Shown here one piece after another: positions 6,623 to 54,585 of a stretch of DNA of 64,000 nucleotides. The notes under the pieces were generated by a model. It saw only the letters and a program-made list of their open reading frames with translations, was not told where the DNA came from and ran no database searches. Source of the stretch: Balneolales bacterium (lineage in GTDB: Bacteria; Bacteroidota; Rhodothermia; Balneolales; HLUCCA01); the NCBI GenBank assembly GCA_041749075.1, contig JBGTBY010000031.1, forward strand, positions 148,342-212,341, read 5' to 3'. Both the position numbers and the translations under genes were made by a program. Every line of letters starts with the position of its first letter. Position 1 is the first letter of the stretch.

Positions 6623-8481
6623 TACGCGTGGGGATCCTTCTGGTCACCGTCTTGATGCCGGGTGTGCTGTTCGCACAGTCGGATTCGATCAAGGTGGTGA
6701 TGGAAGGAGTGGTGATTTCGACGAATCGATCAACACGCACGATAGAAGACATTCCGACCCGCATCGAAATCATTGCCGGCGAGGAATTGGTGGAAAAAGG
6801 GAACATGCGTCCGGGTGACATCCGCATGCTTCTCAACGAAATGACGGGCATCACCATCCGTCAGGAATCGTCTTTTCTTGGTGAGTCCGGAATTCAGATG
6901 CAAGGCCTGAGCCGTCGTTTCACACAGGTGTTGAAAGATGGATTTCCCTTATATGACGGACTTTCGGGCGGGTTGGGTCTATTGCAAACACCGCCATTGG
7001 ATCTTGAGCGCGTGGAAATCATCAAAGGTCCGGCATCCACATTGTATGGCGCTGGAGCGGTAGCCGGATTGGTGAATCTGGTGTCGCGTCGCCCATCCGA
7101 TGTGCCGGAAATGCGTCTATTGGTGAACGGAACCACGGCCGGAGGCGCGGATGCCTCGGTTTTATATTTGCGTCCGGGTCGATTGTTCAGCTCCTCCACG
7201 TATGTTCAAGGCGGATGGCAGCGGTTGTATGATCCGTCGGATGAGGGCTTTGCAGCGATACCGAAATCTTCGAAAGCCTATGTGAGGCAGTCGCTATTTG
7301 CGAATCCATCCGCATCAACCGACATCCACATCACCGGAACCTATTCGCATGATGATCGCACCGGTGGATCGATGGCGGATGACGGATATCGGATCCGGTC
7401 CAAATCGGAATTGAAATCGTTGCAAGCCGTGATGTCGGCTGAGCTCGGCACCTGGACATTGCAGTCGCGATCAAGCCTGTCGCGCTACGATCGGCATCAG
7501 ACCGACACCCGATTTGATGGCCCTCGTGATCATCAGACGAATCGGTTTTCAGAGTTGACCGCATCCTCCACACACGAAACACGCGAATGGGTTGTCGGTG
7601 CGGCGGTTCAGGATGTGGCGTATGGCCAGTCGCCGGAAGGAAGCACCACGCTGAGCCTGTTCGGGAATTGGATTCAGGATGTGGGTCCGATGGCGACGAT
7701 TGAAGCCGGCTACCGGCTCGATCATATGGATCCGTATGGCACGCAGCATCTTCCGCGGGTGAGCCTGATGGTGTCTCCATCCCTTACTCAGACCTATCGC
7801 ATCACTGGTGGATTGGGGTATGTGCTTCCTACCTTGTATCTCGACTCGTACCGGCGGCCGGTGGATTTCATCCGGCCAGAACACATCCGCTCAGTGAAGC
7901 CGGAACAAAGTCTTGGCGGCACAGCGGATGCGAACTTCCGTTCGGAATGGGCAAATCTGAATGTGATGGGTTTCTGGACGCAGGTCAATAATGGGTTGAG
8001 CAGCGAGCTTGTCGGATTCCTGGAAGACGGAGGCATCGGCATTGGTACTATGGTCATGAATCAGGATCCGATTCTCGTGCGCGGTATCGAGACGAATCTG
8101 AAGCTCGATCACGAGCCCTTCGCACTGTATCTCGGTCATACATTCACGGACACCGACGCGGAGTTGGTCTCCCGTCATCGGTTCAATTCGGTGCTCATGA
8201 TCGAAGAGGAAGACGCGTGGCGTGTCGGACTCGAAGCCTATTACCACGGACAGCAGAACATCGGAAAGCCGTATGTCATTGCCGGCATTATGGCCGATTA
8301 CCGGATCGGGTTCGCCACAGTATTCATCAACCTGGAGAATGCGTTCGATGTGCGTCAAACGCGGTTCGAGAGGGTGTATTCCACCTTCGCAGGTACGACG
8401 GTACCCATCTCGGTTGTATCGCCCCTGTATGCGCCGATCGACGGCCGCATCCTGAATGGCGGTTTGCGTTTCGAGTTTTAA
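6619..8481 (+). CDS. TonB-dependent receptor (plug + beta-barrel)
   Basis: Signal peptide. Plug motif [27 protein letters not shown]-terminal GGLRFEF ending in an aromatic residue. Start overlaps the secA stop (ATGA). Confidence 0.85.
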
Positions 8482-9030: not shown

Positions 9031-9902
9031 ACGGCTTGACGGAACTCGGTGGGCGTGGAGCCGGTTATTTTGCGAAATGTGCGATTGAAATGGGTGACCG
9101 AATTGAATCCCACTTCATACGCCACTTGCGAAATCGATAAGCCGGTAGACGACATCAGTTGCTTCGCTTTTTCGATGCGTAATCGGTTCACATATTCAGA
9201 GAAGTTCATACCCGTCGCTTTCTTGAACATCCTGCAAAAATGGGCCGCGCTCATGTTCGCGACGTTCGCCACTTTATCGAGATTCAACTCCTGATTGAGA
9301 TTGGATGTGATGAACTCACGACTTTTTTTGATGCCATCGGGCTCCAGATGATCGGGCGTGACCGACAGCTTTTCAGCCAAAGTCGAAATGTGCTTCGCGA
9401 AAATCTCCAAGAGTCGGACGACCGCCTCGTATTGCTTCGGCGTGAGCAGTTGGCTTGAGTTCAGCAGATCGTGAACCTCGTCTGGATCGGTTTTGAAGCC
9501 CCAATCCAACACTTGTTTCGTGGTCTGTGATAACTTTTCCGCTGTGGCCGCTTCAAGCAAGACTTCACCCGTTTGCAGATATCCGATCACCTTGTTGTGC
9601 AACTTCACGGGCACGGCCGAGACATGAATGCCTGCGAAACAAGTATGATGCAGGGTTTCATTGTCACCTGGCACATGCACGCCATTCACTTGCACGCAGG
9701 TTCGGCACGCTTCATTGTGCTCGCGCATGAAATGGCAAAACGGATTTTCGGTGCCTTGGTCGCGATGGATCGGCTCGGATGATGCAGGATCGCGAAATAT
9801 CAGCGGAAGATGCGTCACTTCCTTGAATGCCTGTTCATATTCCAGATAGAGATCGGAATGGGAAAGGTCGTCGAGCAGTTTTTGAATCGCGTGTTGGTCC
9901 AT
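9027..9902 (-). CDS. AraC-family transcriptional regulator with PocR-like sensory domain
   Basis: N-terminal Cys/His-rich PocR-like region (FCHFMREHNEACRTC). C-terminal double HTH (HFCRMFKKATGMNFSEYVNRLRIEKAKQLM...THFNRTFRKITGSTPTEFR). Confidence 0.85.
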   Translation of the reverse strand: MDQHAIQKLLDDLSHSDLYLEYEQAFKEVTHLPLIFRDPASSEPIHRDQGTENPFCHFMREHNEACRTCVQVNGVHVPGDNETLHHTCFAGIHVSAVPVKLHNKVIGYLQTGEVLLEAATAEKLSQTTKQVLDWGFKTDPDEVHDLLNSSQLLTPKQYEAVVRLLEIFAKHISTLAEKLSVTPDHLEPDGIKKSREFITSNLNQELNLDKVANVANMSAAHFCRMFKKATGMNFSEYVNRLRIEKAKQLMSSTGLSISQVAYEVGFNSVTHFNRTFRKITGSTPTEFRQAV

Positions 9903-26322: not shown

Positions 26323-26427
26323 GCACAGATTCCACAGATTAATTACGTAATGAAATTGTGATGTAATTGTAATTTAAATAAATGTTTACGAGCATTTGAC
26401 AGTGGAGTAAGTAACACTGTCCGCAAG
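26323..26427 (+). repeat. TGTCCGCAAG-element, locus E (core only, one copy at 26418)
   Basis: GCACAGATTCCACAGATTAATTACGTAATGA...CATTTGACAGTGGAGTAAGTAACACTGTCCGCAAG. Ends 32 nt upstream of the yfcC-like ATG. Confidence 0.85.
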
Positions 26428-43668: not shown

Positions 43669-45401
43669 GATAGAACCTCCGATAACTGAGCGATGATATG
43701 ATTCACCACTTGCTGCTCTCGTGCGATGTCTTTGCGTGAGGCGACCGGCGCAAAGCGGATTGTGCTACAGGTATCGAACACGCGTTTCGTTTCGGATATG
43801 ATCTGAGCGGACACGCCGGCGTTGGTCATGGCATCGAGCAGTTGGGAGTCGTTCAAGCCGGCTTCAGGAAGTCCGAGTTTGTCGCAGATAAACCCGCTCA
43901 ATGCGGAGTAGAGAATGCTGTAAGTGGTTTTCACGTCCTGTTCGGATGTGATTCCGGCCAATTTCGATACAGCCCGTTCTTTTGCTTTTGTTTTGCGGAA
44001 GAATCCATAATCATTGGTCAATTTGTCTCGGTTCTGTTTGTCGCGATGCGCAACAGCAACCGCAACAAAAGGAAGGATCAACAACACCCAGAACCACCAG
44101 GCGCGAAGTGCTGAAAAGGAGCTTCGTTGAATCCAAGGCGTGGCGACTAAGATAGGAACCATGCTGAACGGATTGTCGCTGGAATAGGATAGGGATGTGT
44201 TCACATCCCGGTTCACGGTGATGGAAATGGATGCGAGATTCGTGACCTGGTATCGGTTCCGATCCGGATTGAACACGGCGATCTCTGCGGCCGGCAACGT
44301 GTAGGAACCGCCACGCCGCGCGATGATCACATCCCGAAAGGTGCGCGTGCCGGTCAGCGCATTGGCCGTAGGAGCCAATTTGAGATCTTCAGACGGCTGA
44401 TAGGTCTCGAACCCTTCTGGCAATTGGAATTGAGGTTTGGCGATGAGAGCCAGGTTTCCGGTTCCGGAGATTTCGGTGATCAGCTCGATGGCCTCACCGA
44501 CGCTCACCACCGGATTGGATACACGACGGGTGATTTGAAAATCACCCACGGCATTAATGGAGGTTCCGGTTTCGGGTTCCGGCAACGAGCGGATTCGCAG
44601 GGGGGTCGCGTCGGTCGTCAAATCGACGGTGCGCTGGTTGCCGAAGAAAACATTAAAGGGGTCCTGATATCGACCGGCAGTTCGAACCGTTAAGGTAACG
44701 GGCTGTTCACCAATTGTCAACTCTCCGCTGCGATTTGGAAACAAAGCATGTTTGGCCAACACGGCTCTGCGGTAGCGTTCGCCTCTCAAGACAACTTGCT
44801 CGGCTACTGGCGGACTCCCATCCCCCAACGATTCCTTCCAGTACCCATCCGTGCGCCAGCTGTTCGCTACCACAAATTGGGTGATGTCGATGGTAGGCTT
44901 GTAGTACAATACCAGTTCGGCCAAGATCTGTTCTCCAACAACTGGACGTGTTTTGCTGAGCTCCATCCGAACATACAATTCGGGGGATGTTGCCGCATCG
45001 GCCGCATCCCGCTCCGTGACGGTTATGCTGAAGGAATTGGTCAGGTAATCGCGTCCATCCACCGATACAGAAAACGTGGGGATGGTTACAGAACCTACAC
45101 GATCGGCCTGATAGGTGTAGGTGAAGGTGTAGCTGCGGCTGGCAACGCCATTCACAAAGCTATAATTGGTGGATGTCGACGGTTGAGCGCTTTGAAGTAC
45201 CACACCAGGGATGCCTGGCAAGGTTGGACGAGTGACATTCCGAAAATTGCTGCCTTTGATTTCGATGCTCAGCGCAAAGCGGTCGCCGCGTTTCACGGAG
45301 CGTTCGTTGGTCGATGCCGTAATGGTGATGTCATCTTGAGCCGAACCCATCACTGGCAGCACCATCATCAGAAGGGCGATCAGCTTACCAATCTTTCGCA
45401 T
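43665..45401 (-). CDS. batD: BatD-family (oxygen-tolerance) protein
   Basis: 578 aa. Signal peptide, a large extracytoplasmic region, then a TM segment (WWFWVLLILPFVAVAVA) and a cytoplasmic tail, which is the BatD architecture. Confidence 0.6.
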   Translation of the reverse strand: MRKIGKLIALLMMVLPVMGSAQDDITITASTNERSVKRGDRFALSIEIKGSNFRNVTRPTLPGIPGVVLQSAQPSTSTNYSFVNGVASRSYTFTYTYQADRVGSVTIPTFSVSVDGRDYLTNSFSITVTERDAADAATSPELYVRMELSKTRPVVGEQILAELVLYYKPTIDITQFVVANSWRTDGYWKESLGDGSPPVAEQVVLRGERYRRAVLAKHALFPNRSGELTIGEQPVTLTVRTAGRYQDPFNVFFGNQRTVDLTTDATPLRIRSLPEPETGTSINAVGDFQITRRVSNPVVSVGEAIELITEISGTGNLALIAKPQFQLPEGFETYQPSEDLKLAPTANALTGTRTFRDVIIARRGGSYTLPAAEIAVFNPDRNRYQVTNLASISITVNRDVNTSLSYSSDNPFSMVPILVATPWIQRSSFSALRAWWFWVLLILPFVAVAVAHRDKQNRDKLTNDYGFFRKTKAKERAVSKLAGITSEQDVKTTYSILYSALSGFICDKLGLPEAGLNDSQLLDAMTNAGVSAQIISETKRVFDTCSTIRFAPVASRKDIAREQQVVNHIIAQLSEVLS

Positions 45402-46077
45402 GGCGCGTGCGTGGTGGAATTTGCTTTTTCTGATATTCTTTGAGCAGTTCTTTCTCTTTGTTTTCCAAGGCGTTGAGAATCTGTTCGGCTTCTTTCTGAC
45501 TCATTTCACCTTCTTGTGGCCGACCCTGCTCATTCTGGTTCTGCTGATTCTCATTTCCTTGTTGCTGCTGGCCTTGCTGCTCGTTGTTCTGGTTCTGCTC
45601 GTTCTGATCGTTTTGATCCTGCTCCTTTTGCTCGTCGTCGCCTTGCTGTGATTGGGGGTTTTGAGGCGGCTCGGTCATCCGGCGTTGCACCAGCTCGTAA
45701 TTGTATTGGGCTTGTGGGTCGTCGGGCGCGGCACGTAGCGATTCGCGGTAGCGTTCCATGGCTTTGGCCCATTGCTCTTGCAGTCCGTGGATGTTGCCGA
45801 TGTTGTAATCGGCCGCGGCACGATCGCTCGGATCTGAAGACATCGATTTGAATTGCTCGAACGCGGAACGGGCTTCATCAAACTTCCCTTGGCGGGTGAG
45901 CGCGTTACCCAGGTTGAAGTACAATCTTGCATCGTTTGGTGATACGAGTAAGGCTTCACGATAGCCTTTTTCGGCCGTAGCAAAATCACCCCGGTCGTAG
46001 GCTTCATTCGCCTTGCGGGCACCATCCGTAGCGGACGATAGCAGAAACAACAACATCAAAACGACGGATTTCATCAA
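45385..46077 (-). CDS. BatC-like TPR protein with Q/N/E-rich low-complexity tail
   Basis: TPR repeats (YREALLVSPNDARLYFNLGNAL). Tail QNPQSQQGDDEQKEQDQNDQNEQNQNNEQQGQQQQGNENQQNQNEQ. Confidence 0.55.
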   Translation of the reverse strand: MMKSVVLMLLFLLSSATDGARKANEAYDRGDFATAEKGYREALLVSPNDARLYFNLGNALTRQGKFDEARSAFEQFKSMSSDPSDRAAADYNIGNIHGLQEQWAKAMERYRESLRAAPDDPQAQYNYELVQRRMTEPPQNPQSQQGDDEQKEQDQNDQNEQNQNNEQQGQQQQGNENQQNQNEQGRPQEGEMSQKEAEQILNALENKEKELLKEYQKKQIPPRTRHAKDW

Positions 46078-46079
46078 AC

Positions 46080-46835
46080 TTACATCGATTCGGCTACGGA
46101 AACGGCGGTGTCGTCCATTTCCAGATTGTTAAACACATTGGCCACATCATCGAGTTCTTCAAGCTTTTCCATCAGCTTGAAATTCCCGAGAAGTTGCTCT
46201 TCCTCGGCAGAAACGGTTGTCATAGGAAGGTAGTGCATTTCGGCGGATTGAATGCGAAATCCCGCATCTTCCAATCCTTTCCGCACTAAGTATAAATCTT
46301 CGAAGCGGGTATACACATCGAAGGTCTCGTCTTCGGCTTTGATGTCCTCGGCGCCGGCGTCAATGGCGGCAAACGTAAGCGCGTCTTCGTCCACTCCATC
46401 CGATGCGATTTGGATGATGCCTTTGCGTTCGAACAGAAAGGCCACGGATCCGCTCGTACCCAAATTTCCGCCCACTTTGTTGAATAGGGGACGGATGTCG
46501 CCAACCGTGCGGGTCGGGTTGTCGGTAGTGGCTTCAATCAGATAGGCGATGCCGCCGGGGCCATAACCTTCATAGATCAATTCCTGATACACGGCCGCAT
46601 CCTTGCCATCGCCAGAACCTTTTTTAATGGCTCGGTCGATGTTGTCTTTCGGCATGTTCGCGGCTTTCGCATTATCGATGGCCAGCGACAAGCGCGGATT
46701 TCCGCTCGGATCGCCACCTCCATCGCGTGCGGCGACAGTGATTTCACGGATGATCTTGGTCCACGTTTTCGACCGGGCCGCATCCACCAATGCTTTTTTC
46801 CGCTTGATGGTGGCCCACTTGGAATGACCTGACAT
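46080..46835 (-). CDS. yebC: YebC/PmpR family DNA-binding regulator
   Basis: MSGHSKWATIKRKKALVDAARSK N-terminus. 251 aa. Confidence 0.95.
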   Translation of the reverse strand: MSGHSKWATIKRKKALVDAARSKTWTKIIREITVAARDGGGDPSGNPRLSLAIDNAKAANMPKDNIDRAIKKGSGDGKDAAVYQELIYEGYGPGGIAYLIEATTDNPTRTVGDIRPLFNKVGGNLGTSGSVAFLFERKGIIQIASDGVDEDALTFAAIDAGAEDIKAEDETFDVYTRFEDLYLVRKGLEDAGFRIQSAEMHYLPMTTVSAEEEQLLGNFKLMEKLEELDDVANVFNNLEMDDTAVSVAESM

Positions 46836-46921
46836 AGGAACGGTGTTCTCTTCGTTTACTTTTACATACGAACCCTGAATATACGAAGCTCCCGCTTGTC
46901 AAAACTCCGTACCATACAGAT

Positions 46922-48064
46922 ATGAATATTGGAATCGTCGGCTACCCAACCTATGGCGGCAGTGGTGTCGTCGCAACCGAACTAAGCAAAGGTCTCGCCA
47001 CGCGCGGACATAAAGTCCATTTTCTGAGCTATGCTCGACCGCAACGGCTCGATGCCTTCAATACGAACATCATGTTCCATGAAGTCACCGTCAACGCCTA
47101 TCCGTTGTTCGAATTTCCCCCGTACGATTTGGCCTTGGCCAGCCATATGGTGAACCTGATCGAGCACGAAAAGTTGGATCTCCTGCATGTGCATTACGCG
47201 ATTCCGCACACGACGAGTGCCTATTTGGCCAAGCAGATCATGGGGGACAGGGCCAAGCGCGTACCGATCATCACGACTCTTCACGGTACCGACATCACCA
47301 TCGTGGGCAGCGATCCGAGTTATCTGCCCGTCGTGAATTTCTCCATCAACCAGAGCGATGGGGTCACGGCTGTCTCCGATTATTTGCGGGATGAGACCTA
47401 TGCGCGGTTCGACATCCACAATGAAATCGAAGTGATTCCGAATTTTGTGAACCTGGATGTGTTCAAGCGCAGCGACAAATCCCATTTCCGCAAAGCCATC
47501 TGCAACGATGATGAAATGATCGTGACACATGTGTCCAATTTCCGGAAAGTGAAACGCGTGGAAGATGTGGTCAAAACCTTCGCGTATTTGCGTCATCATG
47601 GCGTGAAAGCCAAACTACTGATGCTAGGCGACGGACCCGAGCGTATTCCGCTCGAAGCCTTATGTCGTGAGCTGGGCGTCTGTGACGACACCCGTTTCCT
47701 CGGCAAACAGGACAATGTGGAAGAAATCCTGTCGGTTACCGATCTCTTTCTGATGCCGTCCGGCTCCGAAACCTTCGGACTTGCCGCACTCGAAGCCATG
47801 AGTTGCAGCGTGCCGGTGATCAGCTCGGATGTGGGCGGATTGCCCGAACTCAACCGCGACGGCGTTACAGGTTATGTCTGCGCCTTGGGCGATACCGATG
47901 CCATGGGCGCCGCAGCCGTGAAGATGCTCACCGACAAAACCCTGCATGCGAGAATGGCCCAAGCCGCTCGCGCCCGCGCCGAAGACTTCGAACAGGAAAA
48001 AGTCATCGCGCAGTATGAGGCGTATTATATGAAGGTGCTGAAGAAGCTGGATGCAAGAAGCTAG
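46922..48064 (+). CDS. bshA: GT4 glycosyltransferase, BshA-like (N-acetyl-alpha-D-glucosaminyl L-malate synthase)
   Basis: MNIGIVGYPTYGGSGVVATELSKGLATRGHKVHF and EXFGLAALEAMSCSVPVI. Confidence 0.7.
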   Translation: MNIGIVGYPTYGGSGVVATELSKGLATRGHKVHFLSYARPQRLDAFNTNIMFHEVTVNAYPLFEFPPYDLALASHMVNLIEHEKLDLLHVHYAIPHTTSAYLAKQIMGDRAKRVPIITTLHGTDITIVGSDPSYLPVVNFSINQSDGVTAVSDYLRDETYARFDIHNEIEVIPNFVNLDVFKRSDKSHFRKAICNDDEMIVTHVSNFRKVKRVEDVVKTFAYLRHHGVKAKLLMLGDGPERIPLEALCRELGVCDDTRFLGKQDNVEEILSVTDLFLMPSGSETFGLAALEAMSCSVPVISSDVGGLPELNRDGVTGYVCALGDTDAMGAAAVKMLTDKTLHARMAQAARARAEDFEQEKVIAQYEAYYMKVLKKLDARS

Positions 48065-48077
48065 ATGCGGGATGGTA

Positions 48078-48094
48078 GATGCGGGATGCGAAGA
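48078..48094. repeat. 17-bp perfect inverted repeat, left arm (bounds a 2-kb three-gene segment)
   Basis: gatgcgggatgcgaaga is the reverse complement of 50056-50072. Preceded by a partial tandem copy agatgcgggatgg starting at the bshA stop. Confidence 0.85.
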
Positions 48095-48129
48095 ACCCCC
48101 ATCTTTATCTTATTATTTTCCTGAATTCT

Positions 48130-49035
48130 ATGAAATTGTTCAACATTGCCATCCCAATGTTCAGCGTGCTGCTGAGTTGCTCATCTGTCATGAAAGACAC
48201 GGATGATGTTGTATTTCCTGAGTTGTATCCCATCCATGGCGAAACACAGGTCGTGGATGCGCCACGGACCTACAAAGGATTGGATTTGACGTTGACCAAC
48301 AATGGCATCCCAACAATCTCTGCAAATGACAGCATCATTGGTGTCGTCTGCATCGGAATGAGTAATGCCGCTCAGGAATGTGATCGATACATTCTTGCCG
48401 CTCAAACGGTGTTTGCAGGTGAGGTCAACCCCGATGTACGCATTGTCAATTGCGCACTCGCGAGCCATGCCATTGAGCGATGGAACGACCCTGCATATGA
48501 CACGGCACTTTGGACCCGCTGCACAGATCTGATTTCAGAGGCAGGGCTCTCACTTTCCGATATCCAGGTTGTTTTGCATAAAGCAGCGAATCAGTACACG
48601 ATTGGTCCAAATCAGCAACCGCTGCCGTATTACCCCAATCCGGATAGTGACTTTTTTAAATTCAAAACCAACCTGACCACATTTGCAGAGCGAGTCACAG
48701 CTTTCTTTCCTGAATTGAAAGCTGTTTATACAACGTCACGCAGTTATGGTGGTTTTTCAAACCGTCCCGAAAGAGGGGAGCCACTCAGTTATGAAGAAGG
48801 GCATGCGCTAAACCAATGGTTGCTTGAGAATGGCTCAGTGAACGGAGTCTGGTTCGGTTGGGGACCCTACATCTGGGCTCCGGAATGCAGCACGGGGATT
48901 AAAAACGGACTTGGGTATTGTTATGACCGGCAAGATTATTCACAAGACGCTGTTCATCCGTTGCCCGCTGGAGAAGTGAAAATCGCAAAAATGTGGCACG
49001 CGAGACTTTCTCAGCACGCGTGGTACAGACGTTGA
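48130..49035 (+). CDS. Lipoprotein, possibly SGNH/GDSL-like hydrolase
   Basis: Start moved to MKLFNIAIPMFSVLLSCSS. VVCIGMSNA (block-I-like Ser) and C-terminal QDAVHP (DxxH-like). Weak assignment. Confidence 0.35.
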   Translation: MKLFNIAIPMFSVLLSCSSVMKDTDDVVFPELYPIHGETQVVDAPRTYKGLDLTLTNNGIPTISANDSIIGVVCIGMSNAAQECDRYILAAQTVFAGEVNPDVRIVNCALASHAIERWNDPAYDTALWTRCTDLISEAGLSLSDIQVVLHKAANQYTIGPNQQPLPYYPNPDSDFFKFKTNLTTFAERVTAFFPELKAVYTTSRSYGGFSNRPERGEPLSYEEGHALNQWLLENGSVNGVWFGWGPYIWAPECSTGIKNGLGYCYDRQDYSQDAVHPLPAGEVKIAKMWHARLSQHAWYRR

Positions 49036-49041
49036 TTTTGT

Positions 49042-49728
49042 CTACAGAAGTGTCTCCCTCGGCGCATCTTGATCGTAATTGCCTTGGTGAGGACGAGAAA
49101 CCAACTCACTTACAGACCCATAGCGGTAATACTGTTTAGCGAATGCGATGAATTCGGCGATTGGAAGTCGGTTGATGTCTTTCTGTTGGAATCCCTGATT
49201 CATCTTGAAATTTGACATCTCGGTCATGAAAACGTTGAAATCATCCCATAATGTGCTTGGACTGCTTGCTATATCAACCCCGTTTTCGACCAACCAGCTC
49301 CTCAATTTATGAATGAGCTCTTCTGACTCGTCCTGATGGCATTTGCAATCTGTGAATGACAGGTCGGACAGTGCTTTCTGAGTGCTATATCGTTCGGCCT
49401 CTAAAATGAGGAATCGCTTTTGCCTATGCTTGGCTTCGACATGGTATAATCGGCATCCGAGATCTAGTCCTAACTCAAAAGGCATGTTGAAACGGTAATA
49501 CTCGCCTGAATCTTTCGATTTGACCCGGCTCAGGTCATGTATCGAATACATCGATCCTTCGATCAATTCTTTGATTTTATCGAGTCGCACTTCTGCCGCA
49601 TTGTTTCGTTCCATCGCGATGCGGGGTTCAAAGCCGATTGCAATCAACGTATGCAAAAGAGGTTTTAGCAGGGGGGCGTATTCATCATCAAAAGGGCAGT
49701 TGATGAACACACTGCGTTCATAGGGCAT
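49042..49728 (-). CDS. TIR-like / nucleoside 2-deoxyribosyltransferase-like domain protein
   Basis: N-terminus SVFINCPFDDEYAPLLKPLLHTLIAIGFEP plus NMPFELGLDLG (conserved Glu context of NDT/TIR-like folds). The C-terminal ~90 aa are unrecognised. Confidence 0.45.
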   Translation of the reverse strand: MPYERSVFINCPFDDEYAPLLKPLLHTLIAIGFEPRIAMERNNAAEVRLDKIKELIEGSMYSIHDLSRVKSKDSGEYYRFNMPFELGLDLGCRLYHVEAKHRQKRFLILEAERYSTQKALSDLSFTDCKCHQDESEELIHKLRSWLVENGVDIASSPSTLWDDFNVFMTEMSNFKMNQGFQQKDINRLPIAEFIAFAKQYYRYGSVSELVSRPHQGNYDQDAPRETLL

Positions 49729-49731
49729 CGT

Positions 49732-49950
49732 TTATTTTTTTGCCTTCAACCACATCTCAACCGACCCATCAGAAGCGTGAATGACGAGATCGGCACCACT
49801 TCGCTTTGTCATGGTTCGTGCATGAGTGATAGCGGATTCTTTTGTATCGAATACTTTCGCGGCACGCTGAGCCCCTTCATTCTTCAAGGCCCAACCGGAT
49901 CCTCGTTTTATGATGTGAGCACGTGGCGGTCGGGTTTTGCTATCTGACAT
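49732..49950 (-). CDS. DUF2188 domain protein
   Basis: Internal start MSDSKTRPPRAHIIKRGSGWALKNEGAQRAAKVFDTKESAITHARTMTKRSGADLVIHASDGSV. The upstream part of the track ORF runs into repeat-like sequence. Confidence 0.65.
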   Translation of the reverse strand: MSDSKTRPPRAHIIKRGSGWALKNEGAQRAAKVFDTKESAITHARTMTKRSGADLVIHASDGSVEMWLKAKK

Positions 49951-50055
49951 GGTTATTCTGGGTAGAAATGGATATATGGAATCTACAACTTCACCACATA
50001 TTGACCCAAATAATCCATTCCTAAATTTGGCATTTAGGAACAATAAGTTATGTGG

Positions 50056-50072
50056 TCTTCGCATCCCGCATC
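50056..50072. repeat. 17-bp perfect inverted repeat, right arm
   Basis: tcttcgcatcccgcatc. Embedded in ACAATAAGTTATGTGGTCTTCGCATCC, which resembles the right end of the TGTCCGCAAG elements. Ends a few nt before the stop codon of the next gene (50079-50081). Confidence 0.85.
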
Positions 50073-50078
50073 CCGCTT

Positions 50079-51191
50079 CTACAGCACCCCTTCCATGGTT
50101 TCTTTGATCAACTGATCCACCACGGCTTTTGGGTCGTTGGTGGAATAAAAGCAGGCGAGTTGACGATCGGATGAGGTCCCATGCCGCAAGATTCTATGAA
50201 TCACTGCGATTTCCTCGCGAGCACCGATATCATCCACCACATCATCCACGAAACTCAACAGTTCGAAGATGAGCGCGCGGGCGTCGACTTCTTTCTTCTT
50301 CCCGAGGTCGAGCAACTTCCCATCCAGTCCCCATCGAACCGCACGCCATTTGTTTTCTTGGATGAGTTCTTTGCGATAGACGCGCCAACTCATGTTATTG
50401 CGACGCAGTTTCAGGAGTTTGGCTACAAGCGCCACTTTCAAAGCGCAGATAGCGATGGCTTCGTCGAGGCGGGTCACTACGTCAGTTATGCGGAACTCTA
50501 GGGTTGGGTAGCGTGGCGACGGACGCAGGTCCCAGCGGATTTTGGTTGGATCATCGAAACAATTCGTTGAGATGGCCACATCCAGATATTCCATATAATC
50601 GCCCCAAGAACGCAGTGTGGGCGGAATTCCAGTACGAGGAAGCGCCTCGAACACGACAGAGCGGTACGATTTGAGTCCGGTGTCGTACCCATCCCAGAAA
50701 GGGGAGCTGGTGGACAAAGCAAGCAAGTGCGGACAAAAATAGCTTAACTGGTTCATCAAATCGATGCGCAGGTCGTTGTCCTCGATTCCCACATGCAGGT
50801 GCATGCCGCAAATGAGCAATTGCCGGGCCAGAACCTTGTTTTCGAGCACCAATCCTTCATAACGGGTGCGTTCGGTGATGGACTGATTTGTCCATTTCGA
50901 AAAGGGATGGGTGCCGCACGCGATGATGTTGAGTCCGTGCTCTTGCGCGATTTCGTGCACCGTTCTGCGGGCATACTTGAGTTGATCGTGCGCCTCTTGA
51001 ATGGACGTGCAGATCGGCGTGCCCACCTCCACCTGACATTGGAGCATTTCGGTGGTGATCGTATTTCCCATTTTGTCCTTTCCGTCTTTCAGAAAGAATT
51101 CCACCGCCGAACTGAGTTCGCCGGTTTTGGGATCAACGATCATGTACTCTTCTTCAACGCCGATGGTGAAGGATGTGGTTGGTTTTGCCAT
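50079..51191 (-). CDS. ybdK: Carboxylate-amine ligase, YbdK / GCS2 family
   Basis: FTIGVEEEYMIVD, LQCQVEVGT, GMHLHVGI. Start probably MAKPTTSF (the ORF extends to 51227). Confidence 0.85.
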   Translation of the reverse strand: MAKPTTSFTIGVEEEYMIVDPKTGELSSAVEFFLKDGKDKMGNTITTEMLQCQVEVGTPICTSIQEAHDQLKYARRTVHEIAQEHGLNIIACGTHPFSKWTNQSITERTRYEGLVLENKVLARQLLICGMHLHVGIEDNDLRIDLMNQLSYFCPHLLALSTSSPFWDGYDTGLKSYRSVVFEALPRTGIPPTLRSWGDYMEYLDVAISTNCFDDPTKIRWDLRPSPRYPTLEFRITDVVTRLDEAIAICALKVALVAKLLKLRRNNMSWRVYRKELIQENKWRAVRWGLDGKLLDLGKKKEVDARALIFELLSFVDDVVDDIGAREEIAVIHRILRHGTSSDRQLACFYSTNDPKAVVDQLIKETMEGVL

Positions 51192-51339
51192 AATGCGGGA
51201 AAGTACATCACGGGGATGTGATTTCAATCAGAAAATAGGTGGCGGGATGATTTTTTAAGAATAATCTTCTTCCGGTTGTAACAAATGCAGGGTCTCGTGA
51301 TCATAGGAGAGTGGTACTTAACACAAGAAGCATACACGT

Positions 51340-51726
51340 ATGAACAATCGTCATTCTACGATGTTGGTCCCGGAGCTACTGGTATTAAACAAGCACCTGC
51401 ATAAGATTCGAACTGTCAGCGAATGGGCTAGAAATTGCTGTATTTCTGAATCTAGTTTGAACAAGCGAATAAATACAATACTAGGCACTTCGCCCAAAAT
51501 TGTTCTTCGCGAGTTAAGGTTTGAAGTGATATGTTCGTTGATTAGAGAACAGGGTTTGCAAGCTACAAGTCAAGGGGTGGCGATTGATTCTGGCTTAGGA
51601 ATCCGTAGCAATGATCTTTACAAATTCTTGTCGATCTACTATGGAACGACGTTCACGCGCTTGAGATATGAGATAATAAGTGGAATGTATACCCCAAAGT
51701 TAAACAGGCTTGGAGATTTGGAATGA
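51340..51726 (+). CDS. Stand-alone AraC-type HTH regulator
   Basis: 128 aa. TVSEWARNCCISESSLNKRINTILGTSPKIVLRELRFEVICSLI resembles one AraC HTH unit. Confidence 0.5.
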   Translation: MNNRHSTMLVPELLVLNKHLHKIRTVSEWARNCCISESSLNKRINTILGTSPKIVLRELRFEVICSLIREQGLQATSQGVAIDSGLGIRSNDLYKFLSIYYGTTFTRLRYEIISGMYTPKLNRLGDLE

Positions 51727-52373
51727 TCCAGTCGTGGTTTGACCGAGTCGCCGGTTGGCAGCTGTATCTGATGGTCACATCTTTCTATCTCGGGTTGGTG
51801 TTCTTCTCGCAACAGTTTTTGTTCACAGATGAGCTCGTCCGAAACCAACTTTCGGAAATCTACCCAGCCTACATGATTCAAGATGTGTTAGAGTTGAGAA
51901 GCCGATTTTGGTGGGTCGGATATGTATTAGAACCGATCATTCTCTTCCTGAAGTTGCTTTTGTTTTTTTTGCCGGTCAGTGTTCTGGCTCTGTTATCTGA
52001 TTTGAATTATTCACCAAGGGATATTTTCAAAGCCGCTTTATTTGCCGAATTCGCATTCTTCATACAGCGTTTTTGGTATACGGCTCTTAGCTCAAAGCAC
52101 ACTGACAAATTATTTGATAGTACAATCATTGATCTTTACCCCTTAAGTCTGATTGGAATATTAGGATCCCGAAATGTGGTTCACTGGCTGGTCTATCCAC
52201 TGCAGACTATCAACATCTTTGAGATGATTTTCATCGTGATCACTAGTTGGTTTTTGTCAAGGTGCTGGAGCATGGGGTTTGCAACAACCTTGAATCTGGT
52301 GCTACCCGCCTATCTGATCGGTCTAGTTCTTTGGATGGGCTTTGTTGTATTTGTCACTATTCAGTTAATTTGA
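51723..52373 (+). CDS. Polytopic membrane protein (Yip1-like?), bacteriocin-locus associated
   Basis: 216 aa with about 5 TM segments. Overlaps the upstream stop. No firm family. Confidence 0.45.
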   Translation: MIQSWFDRVAGWQLYLMVTSFYLGLVFFSQQFLFTDELVRNQLSEIYPAYMIQDVLELRSRFWWVGYVLEPIILFLKLLLFFLPVSVLALLSDLNYSPRDIFKAALFAEFAFFIQRFWYTALSSKHTDKLFDSTIIDLYPLSLIGILGSRNVVHWLVYPLQTINIFEMIFIVITSWFLSRCWSMGFATTLNLVLPAYLIGLVLWMGFVVFVTIQLI

Positions 52374-52374
52374 C

Positions 52375-54585
52375 ATGTCATTTTCAATAGATAAGGCTAT
52401 CCGGAACGCTTGGGTTCGGCAAGAGGATCAAAATGACTGTGGCGTAGCCTGTTTGAAATCCATCATCTCGTTTTACAACGGTGATGCCGATCTAGAGTCC
52501 TTGCGCCGTGCATCGGGTACGAGCCGAACTGGCACAACAATGTTGGGCTTATATCAAGCCGCGCCGAAATTCGGTCTTATTGCGGAGGCCTATGAGGCCG
52601 ATATTGAAAATCTCGCAAAACAGACGGAGCCATGTATCCTTCATGTAGTTAAAAACAAGATACTTTTGCACTATATCGTTTGCTATGGGTTCAACGGAAC
52701 TGGATTTATCATTAGCGACCCTGCTGATGGTATAACCGTATTGTCCTCGAGTGAACTAGAAACGATCTGGCAGAGCAGAGCGCTTTTACTTTTAAAAAAG
52801 TCTGATTCGTTTGTCGTGGTTTCTGAAAAGCGGAACCACCGACTAAAATGGTTGTGGAACTTGGCAGAACAAGATGTCAATATATTATCGGTCGCCCTCA
52901 TGCTTGGTCTGGTTATAGCCATCCTTGGTCTGGCTTCAGCAATTTTTACTCAGAAGCTTATTGACGTATTCCTACCTGAGAAACAATTGTTATTGCTGGT
53001 TACTGGGCTTTCATTGATGACCTTTTTATTGTTAGCGCGATCTTTCCTTAGCCGCATTCGGATGTTTTTCCTAATTCGCCAAAGCCGAGGTTTCAATAAC
53101 CGTATGATTGGTCGATTTTATGGTTCTCTGATGCGATTGCCATTCGAGTTTTTCTCCGGACGTAAGACAGGAGATCTAATTGCCCGGATGAATGACACCC
53201 AGCGACTCCAAACAACAATCACATATCTGTTCGGAGACGTGATCATCGATGGGTTGATTATTATCGTTTCCGCAGCATTCGTAGCCTATTATTCGTCACA
53301 TCTTGCAATCTTGTTAATTGCTGCTATTCCAATTTTTATGGCAATTACATGGCGCTTTAACAAGCCTGTTAGGGATGGACAGATTGCCGTGATGCAGGCT
53401 CATGCAATGACTGAAAGTCAATATATGGATACAATTCAAGGGATAGAGGCTATTAAGGGGTCTGGGAAGGAATCCACATTCACAGAGCTTACGCTTAACG
53501 TATATCAGCACTTTCAACAAATGCGTTTTGAACTTGGCAGAGTTGGTATTCGTTTTCAATTCTTGAACGAAGTGGTCGGTATTGGGTTCATGACCGCGCT
53601 ATTTGGTCTTGGTTCATGGATGGTTTTAGAGAACACCCTACAACTCGGGGCATTAATGGCACTCATCCAAATGGGATCTCAACTCTTACCGGCGGCCTCA
53701 CGCCTGTCCATGACCAACCTAAGAATACAAGAAGCCAAGGTAGCTTTCGATCGGATGTATGCATTCACCTCTTTGGAATCTGAACAACCAGAATCGGTGC
53801 AAAGGGGAGTTCGATCAGAAGTGGATCAAGCCAAACAGCCGATCACCAGCTTGCACCTTGAGAACATAACTTTTCGATTTCCAGGTCGCAAGGCCTTGTT
53901 AGAGGATGTAAATCTTGAGGTACATAAGGGCGAAATGATTGGGATTCTTGGAGAGAGTGGATCGGGAAAGACAACTCTGCTTCAATTGATAGAGAGGCTT
54001 TATCCGGTAGAATCAGGACGGATTTGTATAAACGAATCTATTTCAGCCGAATCGATTCCATTGTCGGATTGGCGTCGGACTGTGGGGGTGGTTCCTCAGC
54101 AGGTCAAGATCTTCAACACCGGTTTGCTGCAAAATGTTGCTGTGGACAACGTCGAAGGAGAAGCTGATGTGCATCGTCTTATCGGGTTTTGCAAAGAAGT
54201 TGGTCTTCATGAATTAGTTATGCGATTCCCTCAGGGATATGCAACCTTATTGGGCGAGGAAGGTGTTAATATTTCAGGTGGACAGCGTCAGCTCGTTGGG
54301 TTGGCAAGAGCCCTATATTCAGGACCGAAAATATTGTTGCTTGATGAGGCCACGTCTGCAATGGATCGAATCACAGAGCGCATGGTTTTGGGGCTACTGG
54401 AACATCAACTGGAACACATGGCCATGATTTGGGTCACTCACAGGATCCACACCCTGAGTGAATGTGATAGGATTTATATACTTGATCAGGGTCGGATTCA
54501 GGACCAAGGCACTGCGACTTCACTGATGGAGCGTGAGAATAGCTATTCGCAAGCTGTTCGAGAGATTCGGAGTTTGCTTAAATAA
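52375..54585 (+). CDS. Peptidase-C39-domain ABC transporter (double-glycine leader cleaving bacteriocin exporter)
   Basis: C39 motif QEDQNDCGVACLKSIISFYNG and HYIVCYG. 6-TM ABC membrane domain. Walker A GESGSGKTT, signature ISGGQRQ, Walker B ILLLDEATS. Confidence 0.9.
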   Translation: MSFSIDKAIRNAWVRQEDQNDCGVACLKSIISFYNGDADLESLRRASGTSRTGTTMLGLYQAAPKFGLIAEAYEADIENLAKQTEPCILHVVKNKILLHYIVCYGFNGTGFIISDPADGITVLSSSELETIWQSRALLLLKKSDSFVVVSEKRNHRLKWLWNLAEQDVNILSVALMLGLVIAILGLASAIFTQKLIDVFLPEKQLLLLVTGLSLMTFLLLARSFLSRIRMFFLIRQSRGFNNRMIGRFYGSLMRLPFEFFSGRKTGDLIARMNDTQRLQTTITYLFGDVIIDGLIIIVSAAFVAYYSSHLAILLIAAIPIFMAITWRFNKPVRDGQIAVMQAHAMTESQYMDTIQGIEAIKGSGKESTFTELTLNVYQHFQQMRFELGRVGIRFQFLNEVVGIGFMTALFGLGSWMVLENTLQLGALMALIQMGSQLLPAASRLSMTNLRIQEAKVAFDRMYAFTSLESEQPESVQRGVRSEVDQAKQPITSLHLENITFRFPGRKALLEDVNLEVHKGEMIGILGESGSGKTTLLQLIERLYPVESGRICINESISAESIPLSDWRRTVGVVPQQVKIFNTGLLQNVAVDNVEGEADVHRLIGFCKEVGLHELVMRFPQGYATLLGEEGVNISGGQRQLVGLARALYSGPKILLLDEATSAMDRITERMVLGLLEHQLEHMAMIWVTHRIHTLSECDRIYILDQGRIQDQGTATSLMERENSYSQAVREIRSLLK

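Follow-up and report, generated by a model that had tools for sequence, protein, structure and literature searches.

Bacterial TIR domains of the CAP12/PycTIR type (PF10137) act in CBASS and Pycsar as NADase effectors, and the Glu of their ELG motif is the catalytic Glu of TIR NADases. The work of Lau et al. 2022, citing Burroughs & Aravind 2020, links DUF2188 to defense operons and to CapH/CapP-regulated operons, and a 2025 Thoeris survey places DUF2188 in Thoeris islands. Our literature search found no paper describing the pairing of DUF2188 with the 228-aa enzyme reported here. Tandem heptamer repeats (GGGNATC) are found in Xanthomonas and Nostoc, and genomic stability is reported to be raised, not lowered, near the Xanthomonas repeats (Rehm et al. 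2015, PMC4692102).

The locus examined here lies in a 64,000-nt window of a Balneolales genome (contig JBGTBY010000031.1; coordinates are positions in this window), where, as originally predicted, three genes sit between the convergent genes bshA and a GCS2/YbdK-type gene. The N-acetylglucosaminyl-malate synthase gene bshA occupies 46922 to 48064 on the plus strand (TIGR03999, 546.7 bits against a cut-off of 273.7), and the GCS2/YbdK-type carboxylate-amine ligase gene 50079 to 51227 on the minus strand (NF010039, 503 bits; PF04107, 2.1e-56). Between them, a 302-aa SGNH/GDSL-fold lipoprotein gene (48127 to 49035, plus strand; AF2 and Foldseek) runs toward a 228-aa TIR/NDT-like gene (49042 to 49728, minus strand; AF2, Foldseek, and hhalign), the convergent stop codons being 6 nt apart. 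A 72-aa DUF2188 gene (49732 to 49950, minus strand; PF09954, E = 5.8e-16) is the first gene of a two-gene operon and ends 3 nt ahead of the 228-aa start ATG. The region 5' of this operon (49951 to 50055, minus strand) contains a palindrome, TTCCTAAATTTGGCATTTAGGAA (50018 to 50040), which occurs once in the genome and is a possible operator or terminator. The GC content of the slot is 45-48%, versus 52-56% in the flanks; GCS2 converges on bshA in the host genus only and is co-directional with it in the family's other genera.

The perfect 17-bp inverted repeat reported to bracket these genes is real, with GATGCGGGATGCGAAGA at 48078 to 48094 and its exact reverse complement at 50056 to 50072; because about 2.8e-4 perfect 17-nt inverted pairs are expected in 3.1 kb of random sequence, the pair is not a product of chance. 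The partial tandem copies noticed at both arms are likewise genuine and represent the 7-nt periodicity of two GAWGCNN heptamer arrays. The left array (48043 to 48094, plus strand), in sense orientation to bshA and including the left arm, consists of the units GAAGCTG, GATGCAA, GAAGCTA, GATGCGG, GATGGTA, GATGCGG, and GATGCGA followed by AGA, and the right array (50056 to 50079, minus strand), in sense orientation to GCS2 and including the right arm, reads from 50079 to 50056 GAAGCGG, GATGCGG, and GATGCGA followed by AGA. The arms had been placed exactly at the two stop codons; they are near them, but the bshA TAG (48062 to 48064) is inside the left array with the arm beginning 14 nt after it, and the right arm falls 6 nt short of the GCS2 stop (50079 to 50081), which the right array overlaps by 1 nt. 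The last residues and stop of BshA (...DARS*) are encoded by the heptamer array, while congeners end in ...KLA*, and the left array is not present at the same position in the congeners L023, G002, and G001.

Both arms, in opposite orientation, belong to a family of degenerate GAWGCNN heptamer arrays spread over the whole genome; neither is the end of a mobile element. The 3.32-Mb genome has about 50 to 70 tandem arrays of such heptamers (e.g., GATGCGG, GATGCTG, and GAAGCTG); the array core GATGCGGGATG has 112 copies versus 0 in the reversed control, the 17-mer allowing up to two mismatches has 9 versus 0, and arrays of at least three units number 69 versus 20. A same-strand gene lies upstream of 29 of 36 intergenic arrays (binomial p = 1.6e-4), and 19 of these 29 start between -2 and +4 nt relative to the stop codon (median distance, 1 nt), while convergent gaps hold 16 of the 36 versus 17% expected (p = 1e-4). 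Because an array begins at the stop codon and runs in the sense direction of its gene, a (+)/(-) array pair is a frequent feature of convergent genes: compact pairs with spacers of 8-130 bp are found at eight other convergent gene pairs, and three further pairs enclose 0.7-3 kb with genes. At least 17 identical nucleotides are common to 174 of 2346 array pairs. With regard to their distribution, the repeats are limited to certain lineages, the host genus and a few other Balneolales genera. The left arm has 21 identical nucleotides in common with an array on contig C30, and the right arm 22 with arrays on C30 and C35; because each is matched over a longer exact stretch by arrays elsewhere, the two arms are not each other's closest relatives. 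The inverted repeat is a by-product of two convergent genes, bshA and GCS2, each with its own stop-codon array or, in an equivalent view, of both mRNAs ending with an identical 3' tag.

The slot was compared across five genomes. The empty site that the original prediction proposed to look for was found in G001, where the stop codons of the convergent bshA and GCS2 genes overlap (...ctggcTTAAagcacc), so the region is accessory; the 228-aa and 302-aa genes are present in 3 and 2 of 61 related genomes, respectively. In L023, the order is bshA, the SGNH gene, a VapC(PIN)/75-aa pair, and GCS2, with the left array absent and the right array present, its outer part, TAGAAGCGGGATGC, being common to both genomes despite the different cargo. 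Host identity to L023 is 87.3% as far as 49037 and 96.8% from 50068 onward, and because homology breaks at these two positions, the unit that differs is exactly the two-gene operon. The G002 slot holds Avs3a/Avs3b (PADLOC, 2951 and 266 bits) adjoining a 5' remnant of DUF2188, to which 49910 to 50036 is 84% identical; this genome has cargo without arrays at the site, and G001 has neither. The G003 contigs terminate at the ends of both genes, with array-like sequence on the bshA side. Between the arrays lies a genus-specific hypervariable accessory slot rather than one element, and its content is composite, with an older SGNH-fold lipoprotein gene next to a separately exchangeable two-gene operon.

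These comparisons bear on how the repeats relate to the cargo. A discrete insertion delimited by the repeats, as first proposed, could be a MITE or an IS-like mobile element with the 17-bp sequences as its terminal repeats and all three genes on board, and the exact bracketing of the non-core DNA, the empty site of G001, and the lower GC content of the segment are in keeping with this. Such an element is nonetheless very improbable, as it is contradicted by the membership of the arms in the array family, each with a longer match elsewhere, by L023, where the SGNH gene occurs without the left arm, the right array adjoins different cargo, and the polymorphism boundaries fall away from the arms, and by the absence of any transposase, integrase, or target-site duplication at the segment, which is single-copy in the genome. 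It is conceivable, if unlikely, that the cargo was inserted into the spacer of a compact (+)/(-) array hairpin in the bshA-GCS2 gap, the arrays or the hairpin apex making the site prone to recombination and promoting cassette exchange; this would fit the eight compact inverted pairs at other convergent gaps, the three pairs enclosing genes, the homology break with L023 inside the right array, and the G003 contig breaks with their array-like bshA end. However, the L023 (SGNH gene without the left array), G002, and G001 patterns indicate that arrays are neither necessary nor sufficient for cargo, and the increased stability near Xanthomonas heptamers in Rehm et al. (PMC4692102) also speaks against this reading.

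The operon within this slot proved to be widely distributed. In 81 of 82 loci of the 228-aa family, from at least 10 phyla, DUF2188 is directly upstream on the same strand, so the earlier statement that no partner is present does not hold, DUF2188 being a near-obligate partner. The pairing also occurs in three independently fetched contigs, and no other neighbor family, SGNH-like included, recurs beside the pair in the 82 loci. Nor do the three genes constitute one unit, as had been supposed, since the exchangeable part is the two-gene operon alone, replaced by VapBC in L023. Although the genes are adjacent, with their convergent stops so closely spaced, a single functional system comprising an SGNH esterase, a TIR-like enzyme, and DUF2188 is extremely improbable: the SGNH gene is encoded on the other strand and adjoins VapBC in L023, the two families differ in their distribution among relatives, and the neighborhood statistics contradict such a system. 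The PADLOC search suggested at the outset succeeded for one member of the pair: the genome has a single DUF2188 gene, whose product was hit by both PDC-S16 models at about 5e-16 (PDC-S16, 4.6e-16) and also by phrog_3220 (2.4e-12), and the 228-aa protein has no PADLOC match. From PADLOC naming, we take PDC-S16 to be a single-gene candidate. The 228-aa family is present on 17 plasmids and in 0 of 50,697 phage records; some loci adjoin TniB/TniQ (Tn7-like) transposition genes, the immediate neighbors in 80 genomes are mostly housekeeping genes, not defense islands, and in Cyclonatronum, an Xre-RES/MbcAT NAD+-degrading pair adjoins the cassette. DUF2188 and the 228-aa gene are a self-contained cassette that has spread horizontally through many phyla.

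Consistent with the predicted TIR/NDT-like fold, the AF2 model of the 228-aa protein (pLDDT 84, pTM 0.82), which includes a C-terminal helical domain (residues 157-211), was matched by Foldseek to SPARTA TIR-APAZ (6e-4), NDT, BcmB, and DNPH1; models of viral NDT and CMP hydrolase are further matches. The protein stayed below threshold for every Pfam, NCBIfam, and PADLOC model, PF10137 giving a best per-member E-value of 0.012 and appearing in 3 of 35 members. By hhalign, the family showed a weak match to PF10137-type TIR domains (E = 0.0011, 119 columns, probability 21%; reversed decoy, 0.056) that puts E85, the Glu of NMPFELG to which attention had been drawn and which is invariant in the family, on the conserved ELG-motif Glu of CAP12/PycTIR-type domains; no sequence-profile signal was obtained against a bona fide DNPH1-like protein. 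E85 is the proposed catalytic residue, and within the cassette the 228-aa protein is a putative effector or toxin. Structurally, NDT, DNPH1, and BcmB are matched about as well as TIR (TM scores normalised to the target reach 0.79), and this, with the mostly housekeeping neighbors and the lack of a PADLOC match for the enzyme, would accord with an NDT/DNPH1-like N-glycosidase of nucleotide salvage or modification accompanied by a small regulator, with no part in conflict. We consider this improbable given the sporadic, horizontal distribution (3 of 61 relatives but many phyla), the plasmid and TniB/TniQ associations, the Avs3 or VapBC genes in the same slot of congeners, a sequence profile that leans to PF10137 TIR and not to DNPH1, and the match of DUF2188 to a PADLOC defense candidate together with its presence in published defense operons.

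For the 302-aa lipoprotein, which has a signal peptide and the lipobox LLSC, a start at ATG 48079 was rejected in favor of ATG 48127. Its AF2 model (pLDDT 88.5) matched the GDSL esterase 8gr2 (6e-7), PatB, and sialate O-acetylesterases in Foldseek, bearing out the SGNH-like fold, and G77-M78-S79-N80 and D274..H277 are invariant in its family; the protein is probably a carbohydrate or peptidoglycan O-acetyl esterase. Its counterpart at the same site in L023 has 88% protein identity, the gene being within the 87% identical left block, and judged by this flank-level identity, the SGNH-fold gene is the older resident of the slot.

A defense or toxin role for the cassette, raised in the original prediction, is plausible because the same slot holds Avs3 (G002) or VapBC (L023). 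The 228-aa TIR-like protein would use E85 to cleave an N-glycosidic bond, in either NAD+ or a nucleotide, leading to growth arrest, and the co-translated DUF2188 protein would hold the enzyme inactive or sense a trigger. From the fold, conserved residues, gene architecture, and genomic company, the pair most likely acts as a toxin-antitoxin-like addiction module or as an abortive-infection module. The explanation as a whole, a heptamer-array pair around a composite slot with a two-gene TIR-like cassette acting as a toxin or abortive module, is one that we hold with moderate confidence; its first three steps, the array by-product, the composite slot, and the horizontally spread cassette, are observed in the genomes themselves.

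Among known systems, the GGGNATC heptamers of Xanthomonas and Nostoc (Rehm et al. 2015, PMC4692102) resemble the host arrays in their 7-nt tandem units, their spread over the genome, and their over-representation in non-coding DNA. Two positions distinguish the host unit, in the frame GGGATGC, from GGGAATC, and the host arrays are from a different phylum, are far more degenerate, and often form inverted pairs between convergent genes; because many units lack a G-run, quadruplex formation is not general for them. As in defense islands and integration hotspots (e.g., Avs3/AVAST type 3 in G002), one chromosomal position carries immune or toxin modules that vary by strain, but the slot is very small (0-8 kb), with no integrase or tRNA anchor and no evident exchange mechanism. 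The 228-aa model has the same five-stranded flavodoxin-like fold as CAP12/PycTIR-type and SPARTA TIR-APAZ (8i88, 8ifl, and 8qlp) domains; the R-x-N-(V/M)-x-F-E-L-G motif aligns such that E85 falls on the ELG-motif Glu, the first strands IFIxHG and VFINCPFD align, and both have an (S/T)D motif after strand 4. Unlike these TIR proteins, it falls below every Pfam threshold, has its own C-terminal helical domain, lacks a fused sensor (STING, SAVED, cNMP-binding, or APAZ), and is partnered by a DUF2188 protein of some 70 aa rather than a cyclase or an Argonaute, its NADase activity being putative. The NDT/DNPH1/BcmB N-glycosidases (PF05014 superfamily; 2a0k, 8pqt, 4kxm, and 4jen) belong to the same fold class, with the helix that follows strand 3 likewise starting with a Glu preceded by a loop, whereas the 228-aa gene, unlike these salvage genes, behaves as a mobile cassette. 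PDC-S16 of PADLOC covers the 72-aa protein, with its 228-aa enzyme partner absent from PADLOC. Neither cassette protein falls in a known family of toxins or antitoxins, unlike VapBC of L023 or Xre-RES/MbcAT of Cyclonatronum, and the role of DUF2188 would be antitoxin-like; as in these type II toxin-antitoxin pairs, the leading gene is small and tightly linked to a larger one for an enzyme, and the cassette is solitary, 1 kb long, horizontally scattered between housekeeping genes, and positionally interchangeable with VapBC in the L023 slot.

The original prediction described a discrete three-gene insertion between two convergent housekeeping genes, bshA on the left (TIGR03999, 547 bits) and, on the right, a carboxylate-amine ligase gene of the YbdK/GCS2 type (GCS2; 50079-51227; NF010039, 503 bits), with perfect 17-nt inverted repeats as its ends. 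The repeat itself is present, with GATGCGGGATGCGAAGA at 48078-48094 and its exact reverse complement at 50056-50072, and it is not due to chance, since a perfect 17-nt inverted pair is expected only 2.8e-4 times in 3.1 kb of random sequence. Three open reading frames sit between these arms, as claimed: an SGNH-fold lipoprotein gene on the plus strand (48127-49035, 302 aa), followed on the minus strand by a TIR-like gene (49042-49728, 228 aa) and a DUF2188 gene (49732-49950, 72 aa, E = 5.8e-16). The GC content is 45-48% within the segment vs 52-56% in its flanks.

Both arms were found to be parts of 7-nt periodic arrays. The left array, at 48043-48094, reads GAAGCTG GATGCAA GAAGCTA GATGCGG GATGGTA GATGCGG GATGCGA AGA, and because it starts inside bshA, it supplies the four C-terminal codons of the gene and its stop (…DARS-stop); in congeners the BshA C terminus is …KLA-stop. 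On the minus strand, the right array runs TAG AAGCGG GATGCGG GATGCGA AGA, and its first base is the final base of the GCS2 stop codon. These units are abundant: the 3.32-Mb genome has 112 copies of GATGCGGGATG (reversed control, 0) and 501 of GCGGGATG (control, 23), and arrays, defined as at least three GAWGC cores at 7-nt spacing, number 69 vs 20 in the control. When the arrays were placed relative to genes, using crude longest-ORF gene calls with a coding density of 93%, 29 of 36 intergenic arrays were downstream of a same-strand gene (binomial p = 1.6e-4), with a median of 1 nt between stop codon and array start and with 19 of the 29 starting within -2 to +4 nt. Convergent gaps hold 16 of the 36 intergenic arrays, though they make up only 17% of gaps (p = 1e-4). 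In eight other convergent gene pairs, a plus-strand array and a minus-strand array, each abutting its own stop codon, are separated by a spacer of 8-130 bp, and the bshA/GCS2 inverted repeat is the same arrangement with a 2-kb spacer. At least 17 identical nucleotides are common to 174 of 2346 array pairs; the left arm has 21 nt in common with an array on C30, another contig of this genome, and the right arm has 22 nt in common with arrays on C30 and on a further contig, C35. The two arms have no specific relation to each other. Altogether, this accounts for the inverted repeat, which is nothing unusual in this genome: inverted repeats surround gene blocks here because heptamer arrays are placed genome-wide directly after stop codons; such repeats are not to be taken as element ends.

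The distribution of the arrays among relatives is patchy and lineage-specific. A four-unit pattern matched 155 times in this genome, 62, 44 and 3 times in the congener genomes G002, G003 and G001, respectively, and 0 times in other genera of the family, while other array units (GAAGCGA, GATGCTC) were found in three relatives from another family of the order (G013, G019 and G025). Homogeneous (GATGCGG)n arrays carry G3 tracts 4 nt apart, and long GATGCGG arrays match the G3N4 quadruplex pattern; there are only 2 to 3 G3 tracts per arm and none in many units (GATGCTG, GAAGCTA). Perfectly homogeneous long arrays, (GATGCGG)12-13 and (GAAGCGG)11-18, are located on this genome's contigs at C21:7103-7186, C22:102585-102675, C22:113544-113669, C33:84278-84368 and C18:77025-77101. 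Contigs of several relatives end in homogeneous arrays, indicating that arrays break assemblies. A similar sequence (…GGATTTGGGTAATTTTG…) follows two arrays, C20:24881-24960 and C28:74961-75040, each being the left member of an array-bracketed gene block of 2-3 kb, and these two blocks may be paralogous regions. Elsewhere in the bshA/GCS2 gap, a palindrome that occurs once in the genome, TTCCTAAATTTGGCATTTAGGAA at 50018-50040, stands between the array of GCS2 and the start of DUF2188 and might serve as a cassette operator or as a weak terminator for GCS2. A relation between 50022-50066 and the TGTCCGCAAG element at 26323-26427 was rejected, the local alignment scores being trivial (13 and 17). 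No tRNA or Rfam RNA was detected in scans of 46.8-51.4 kb and 44-54 kb, and a scan for consensus promoters and terminators performed no better than on shuffled sequence.

The segment belongs to the accessory genome but is composite, and it does not end at the arms. A transposable element with terminal inverted repeats was rejected, as the family of the arms has at least 112 members in the genome and the polymorphism boundaries are at 49037 and 50068, not at the arms; neither a transposase or integrase gene within the 2 kb nor a target-site duplication beside the arms was found. An integron gene cassette was likewise rejected, since only 6 nt separate the stop codons of the 228-aa and SGNH genes, leaving no room for an attC site at the cassette 3' end.

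These boundaries come from comparison with a congener, described below. In the other genera of the family (loci L016, L017 and L018), bshA and the GCS2 ligase gene are adjacent and co-directional; they are convergent only in the genus under study, which suggests that a bacillithiol-related operon was broken by inversion of GCS2 in this genus. The expected empty site exists: in G001 the slot between the two genes is empty, and the bshA and GCS2 stop codons overlap in TTAA. A 683-kb metagenome contig of a congener (L023), syntenic with the window over the approximately 5 kb compared on each side, has the order bshA, a 301-aa SGNH gene, a PIN-domain VapC gene with a 75-aa gene (both on the minus strand) and GCS2, and its SGNH protein is 88% identical to the 302-aa protein. 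The DNA identity is 87.3% over 44000-49037, including bshA and the whole SGNH gene, and 96.8% from 50068 on, and this step across the slot implies a recombination breakpoint between lineages at the junction. What differs is exactly 49038-50067, i.e., the DUF2188 and 228-aa operon with its 5' region. This contig has no array after bshA and one (TAGAAGCGGGATGCTAAATGC…) after GCS2, so that there is no fixed link between the left arm and the SGNH gene or between the right arm and the cargo. Heptamer-like units (…GGAAGCGGGATGA) are also present at the stop codon of its vapC gene (6908-6930). Immediately beyond GCS2 in the window, a block of lower GC content (41-45%) at 51340-54585 is 97% identical to the same contig; it encodes an HTH_18 regulator, a 216-aa membrane protein and a C39-peptidase ABC exporter and looks like a cluster of the bacteriocin-export type.

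The slot of G002 spans 8 kb and holds Avs3a (2099 aa; full length, PADLOC 2951 bits) and Avs3b (266 bits). Beside Avs3, the 5' end of a DUF2188 gene and the sequence upstream of it survive as a remnant (84% identity to 49910-50036 of the window), joined in frame to a 123-bp duplicate of the GCS2 3' end. Two direct copies of this 123-bp sequence, within 1584-1840 and 9527-9650 of the G002 sequence, flank the 8-kb Avs3 island; the left copy is joined in frame to the first 12 DUF2188 codons at a common ATCATC microhomology, giving the fused reading frame MADSKTRPPRAH-IIHRILRHG…, which looks like the scar of an illegitimate deletion at the slot. In G003, both bshA and GCS2 end at contig breaks, the bshA end being array-like, and a walk across the break via the terminal 14-mer found no continuing contig. 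Overall, the 228-aa family is present in 3 of 61 related genomes and the 302-aa family in 2 of 61. That the arrays favor exchange at convergent gaps such as this slot is conceivable but, in our view, unlikely; in the five genomes compared, cargo neither requires arrays nor follows from their presence.

The 302-aa protein had been called an SGNH-like lipoprotein, and this assignment is borne out. It carries a lipoprotein signal (MKLFNIAIPMFSVLLSC), and its AlphaFold2 (AF2) model is confident (pLDDT 88.5), with 26 Foldseek matches at E <= 0.001 (best 6e-7), led by GDSL esterases, PatB peptidoglycan O-acetyltransferases, sialate O-acetylesterases and acetylxylan esterases. The block I Ser and the block V DxxH are present, and G-M-S79-N and D274-x-x-H277 are invariant in the family. 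Searches of Pfam, NCBIfam, PADLOC and PHROGs with this protein returned nothing significant.

The original prediction further stated that no partner such as a SIR2/SLOG sensor is present. We found instead that DUF2188 is the partner of the 228-aa protein: among 82 loci from at least 10 phyla, a DUF2188 reading frame is directly upstream on the same strand in 81 and downstream in one. The gap between the two genes is 3 nt here and typically -4 to +28 nt, and three independently fetched genomes show DUF2188, a gap of 3-5 nt and then the 228-aa homologue. No other family recurs among the neighbors of the cassette in the 82 loci, the immediate neighbors being mostly housekeeping genes. The pair thus behaves as a solitary mobile two-gene cassette, carried by 563 or more species-level genomes across many phyla; the 228-aa family occurs on 17 plasmids and in 0 of 50,697 phage records. 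On one plasmid, from Sphingomonas aliaeris (NZ_CP061036.1, 2799-3606), a homologue with a 56-aa hypothetical gene 1 nt upstream adjoins TniB/TniQ genes and appears to be cargo of a Tn7-like element. The cassette has the architecture of a type II toxin-antitoxin locus, with a small gene coupled to a larger enzyme gene as a conserved, horizontally scattered pair that is present in 3 of 61 relatives. The genome contains a single DUF2188 gene, whose product matches the PADLOC candidate PDC-S16, a term not found in the literature searched. Lau et al. (2022), citing Burroughs and Aravind (2020), report DUF2188 in CapH/CapP-regulated operons, and a 2025 Thoeris survey reports it in a Thoeris island.

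The 228-aa family comprises at least 2842 homologues, all annotated as hypothetical, and the protein itself gave nothing significant in Pfam, including PF05014, or in NCBIfam, PADLOC and PHROGs. A TIR/NDT-like fold had been anticipated, and both the AF2 model and the Foldseek matches agree with it. In the model (pLDDT 84, pTM 0.82), residues 1-150 form a beta-alpha domain of five strands, after which comes a helical domain, in the order strand, helix, strand, helix, strand, helices, strand, helix, strand, helix, and together with the Foldseek matches it gives a flavodoxin-like fold of five parallel strands like that of solved TIR domains. The Foldseek matches fall between E = 6e-4 and approximately 1e-2, with target-normalized TM scores up to 0.79; the top ones are SPARTA TIR (TIR-APAZ) chains (E = 6e-4 to 1e-3), and others are nucleoside 2-deoxyribosyltransferases, the CMP N-glycosidase BcmB and DNPH1 (target-normalized TM 0.51 for 2a0k, 0.60 for 8pqt, 0.69 for 4kxm and 0.79 for 4jen). 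Viral CMP hydrolase, NDT and Cap12-TIR models matched as well. The predicted fold is thus similar to that of NDT/DNPH1 (PF05014) members as well, and a metabolic, NDT-like role of the cassette would accord with such matches, though we consider it quite improbable.

At the sequence level, the PF10137 HMM did not match the 228-aa protein and matched 3 of 35 family members (best E = 0.012, below the cut-off), and a PDB sequence search with the family profile and with DUF2188 returned nothing. Comparison by hhalign had no power when a small family alignment was set against one TIR or one DNPH1-like protein at a time, and against the bona fide DNPH1-like protein L106 (54 bits to PF05014) no similarity was found (E = 0.5-0.8). 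A usable but weak result was obtained only once both alignments were enlarged, to 117 family members and 10 TIR domains, nine of them from related genomes, each above the PF10137 cut-off, and the tenth from a further TIR protein (L021): the alignment covered 119 columns, i.e., the whole domain, with E = 0.0011 and a weak probability of 21%, and a reversed decoy used as a control aligned over 36 columns at E = 0.056, while the bona fide DNPH1-like protein again showed nothing. This alignment pairs VFINCPFD with IFIxHG, YSIHDLS with the third strand, and R-x-NMPFELG with R-x-NVIFELG. The Glu of NMPFELG (E85), singled out in the original prediction, is invariant in the family and is aligned with the Glu of NVIFELG, where the helix that follows strand 3 begins, which places Glu85 at the position of the conserved ELG-motif Glu of these TIR domains. 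In Cap12/PycTIR-type TIR domains, we take this Glu to be the catalytic residue. We conclude that the 228-aa protein has a predicted TIR/NDT-superfamily fold; it is probably nearest to Cap12/PycTIR-type TIR domains and is a candidate member of that family.

Altogether, the accessory nature of the region, the SGNH assignment and the TIR/NDT-like fold survive from the earlier interpretation, while the reading of the arms as element ends, of the segment as a single unit and of the enzyme as partnerless is to be given up. We are largely confident in the structural and evolutionary picture of stop-codon arrays at convergent genes, a hypervariable slot, and a conserved pair comprising a TIR-like enzyme with an invariant Glu. 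The functional picture is more tentative, falling somewhat short of an even call: the TIR-like enzyme would hydrolyze NAD+ or a nucleotide, DUF2188, translated just ahead of it from the same mRNA, would restrain the enzyme or sense a trigger, and together they would form a module for abortive infection or one resembling a toxin-antitoxin system. The TIR-like two-gene cassette is itself real, widespread and unannotated, and is a putative variant of known TIR or toxin-antitoxin conflict systems. A stronger view is possible, if doubtful, in which the pair is an autonomous, undescribed immune or addiction system, with DUF2188 gating a divergent PF10137-like TIR NAD+/nucleotide glycosidase, and the bshA/GCS2 gap is a miniature defense swap slot occupied by Avs3, VapBC or the pair, with the arrays helping turnover. 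The cassette is annotated as hypothetical everywhere, and the enzyme is missing from Pfam, NCBIfam and PADLOC. If the enzyme were indeed a TIR-type NAD+- or nucleotide-degrading toxin held by DUF2188, a function would be assigned to a DUF recurrent in defense operons, and a minimal TIR system would be added to the bacterial immune repertoire. The locus adds that the same 1-kb position holds a validated defense system (Avs3) or a classical VapBC in sister genomes.

Heptamer arrays in this phylum directly after stop codons were not found described in the literature searched. The nearest published phenomenon (Rehm et al., 2015; PMC4692102) concerns heptamer repeats of the form GGGNATC in Xanthomonas and Nostoc, from which arrays directly after stop codons are known. 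The arrays described here belong with this class of stop-codon-proximal, G-rich heptamer repeats, and their unit, written as GGGATGC, differs at two positions from GGGAATC.
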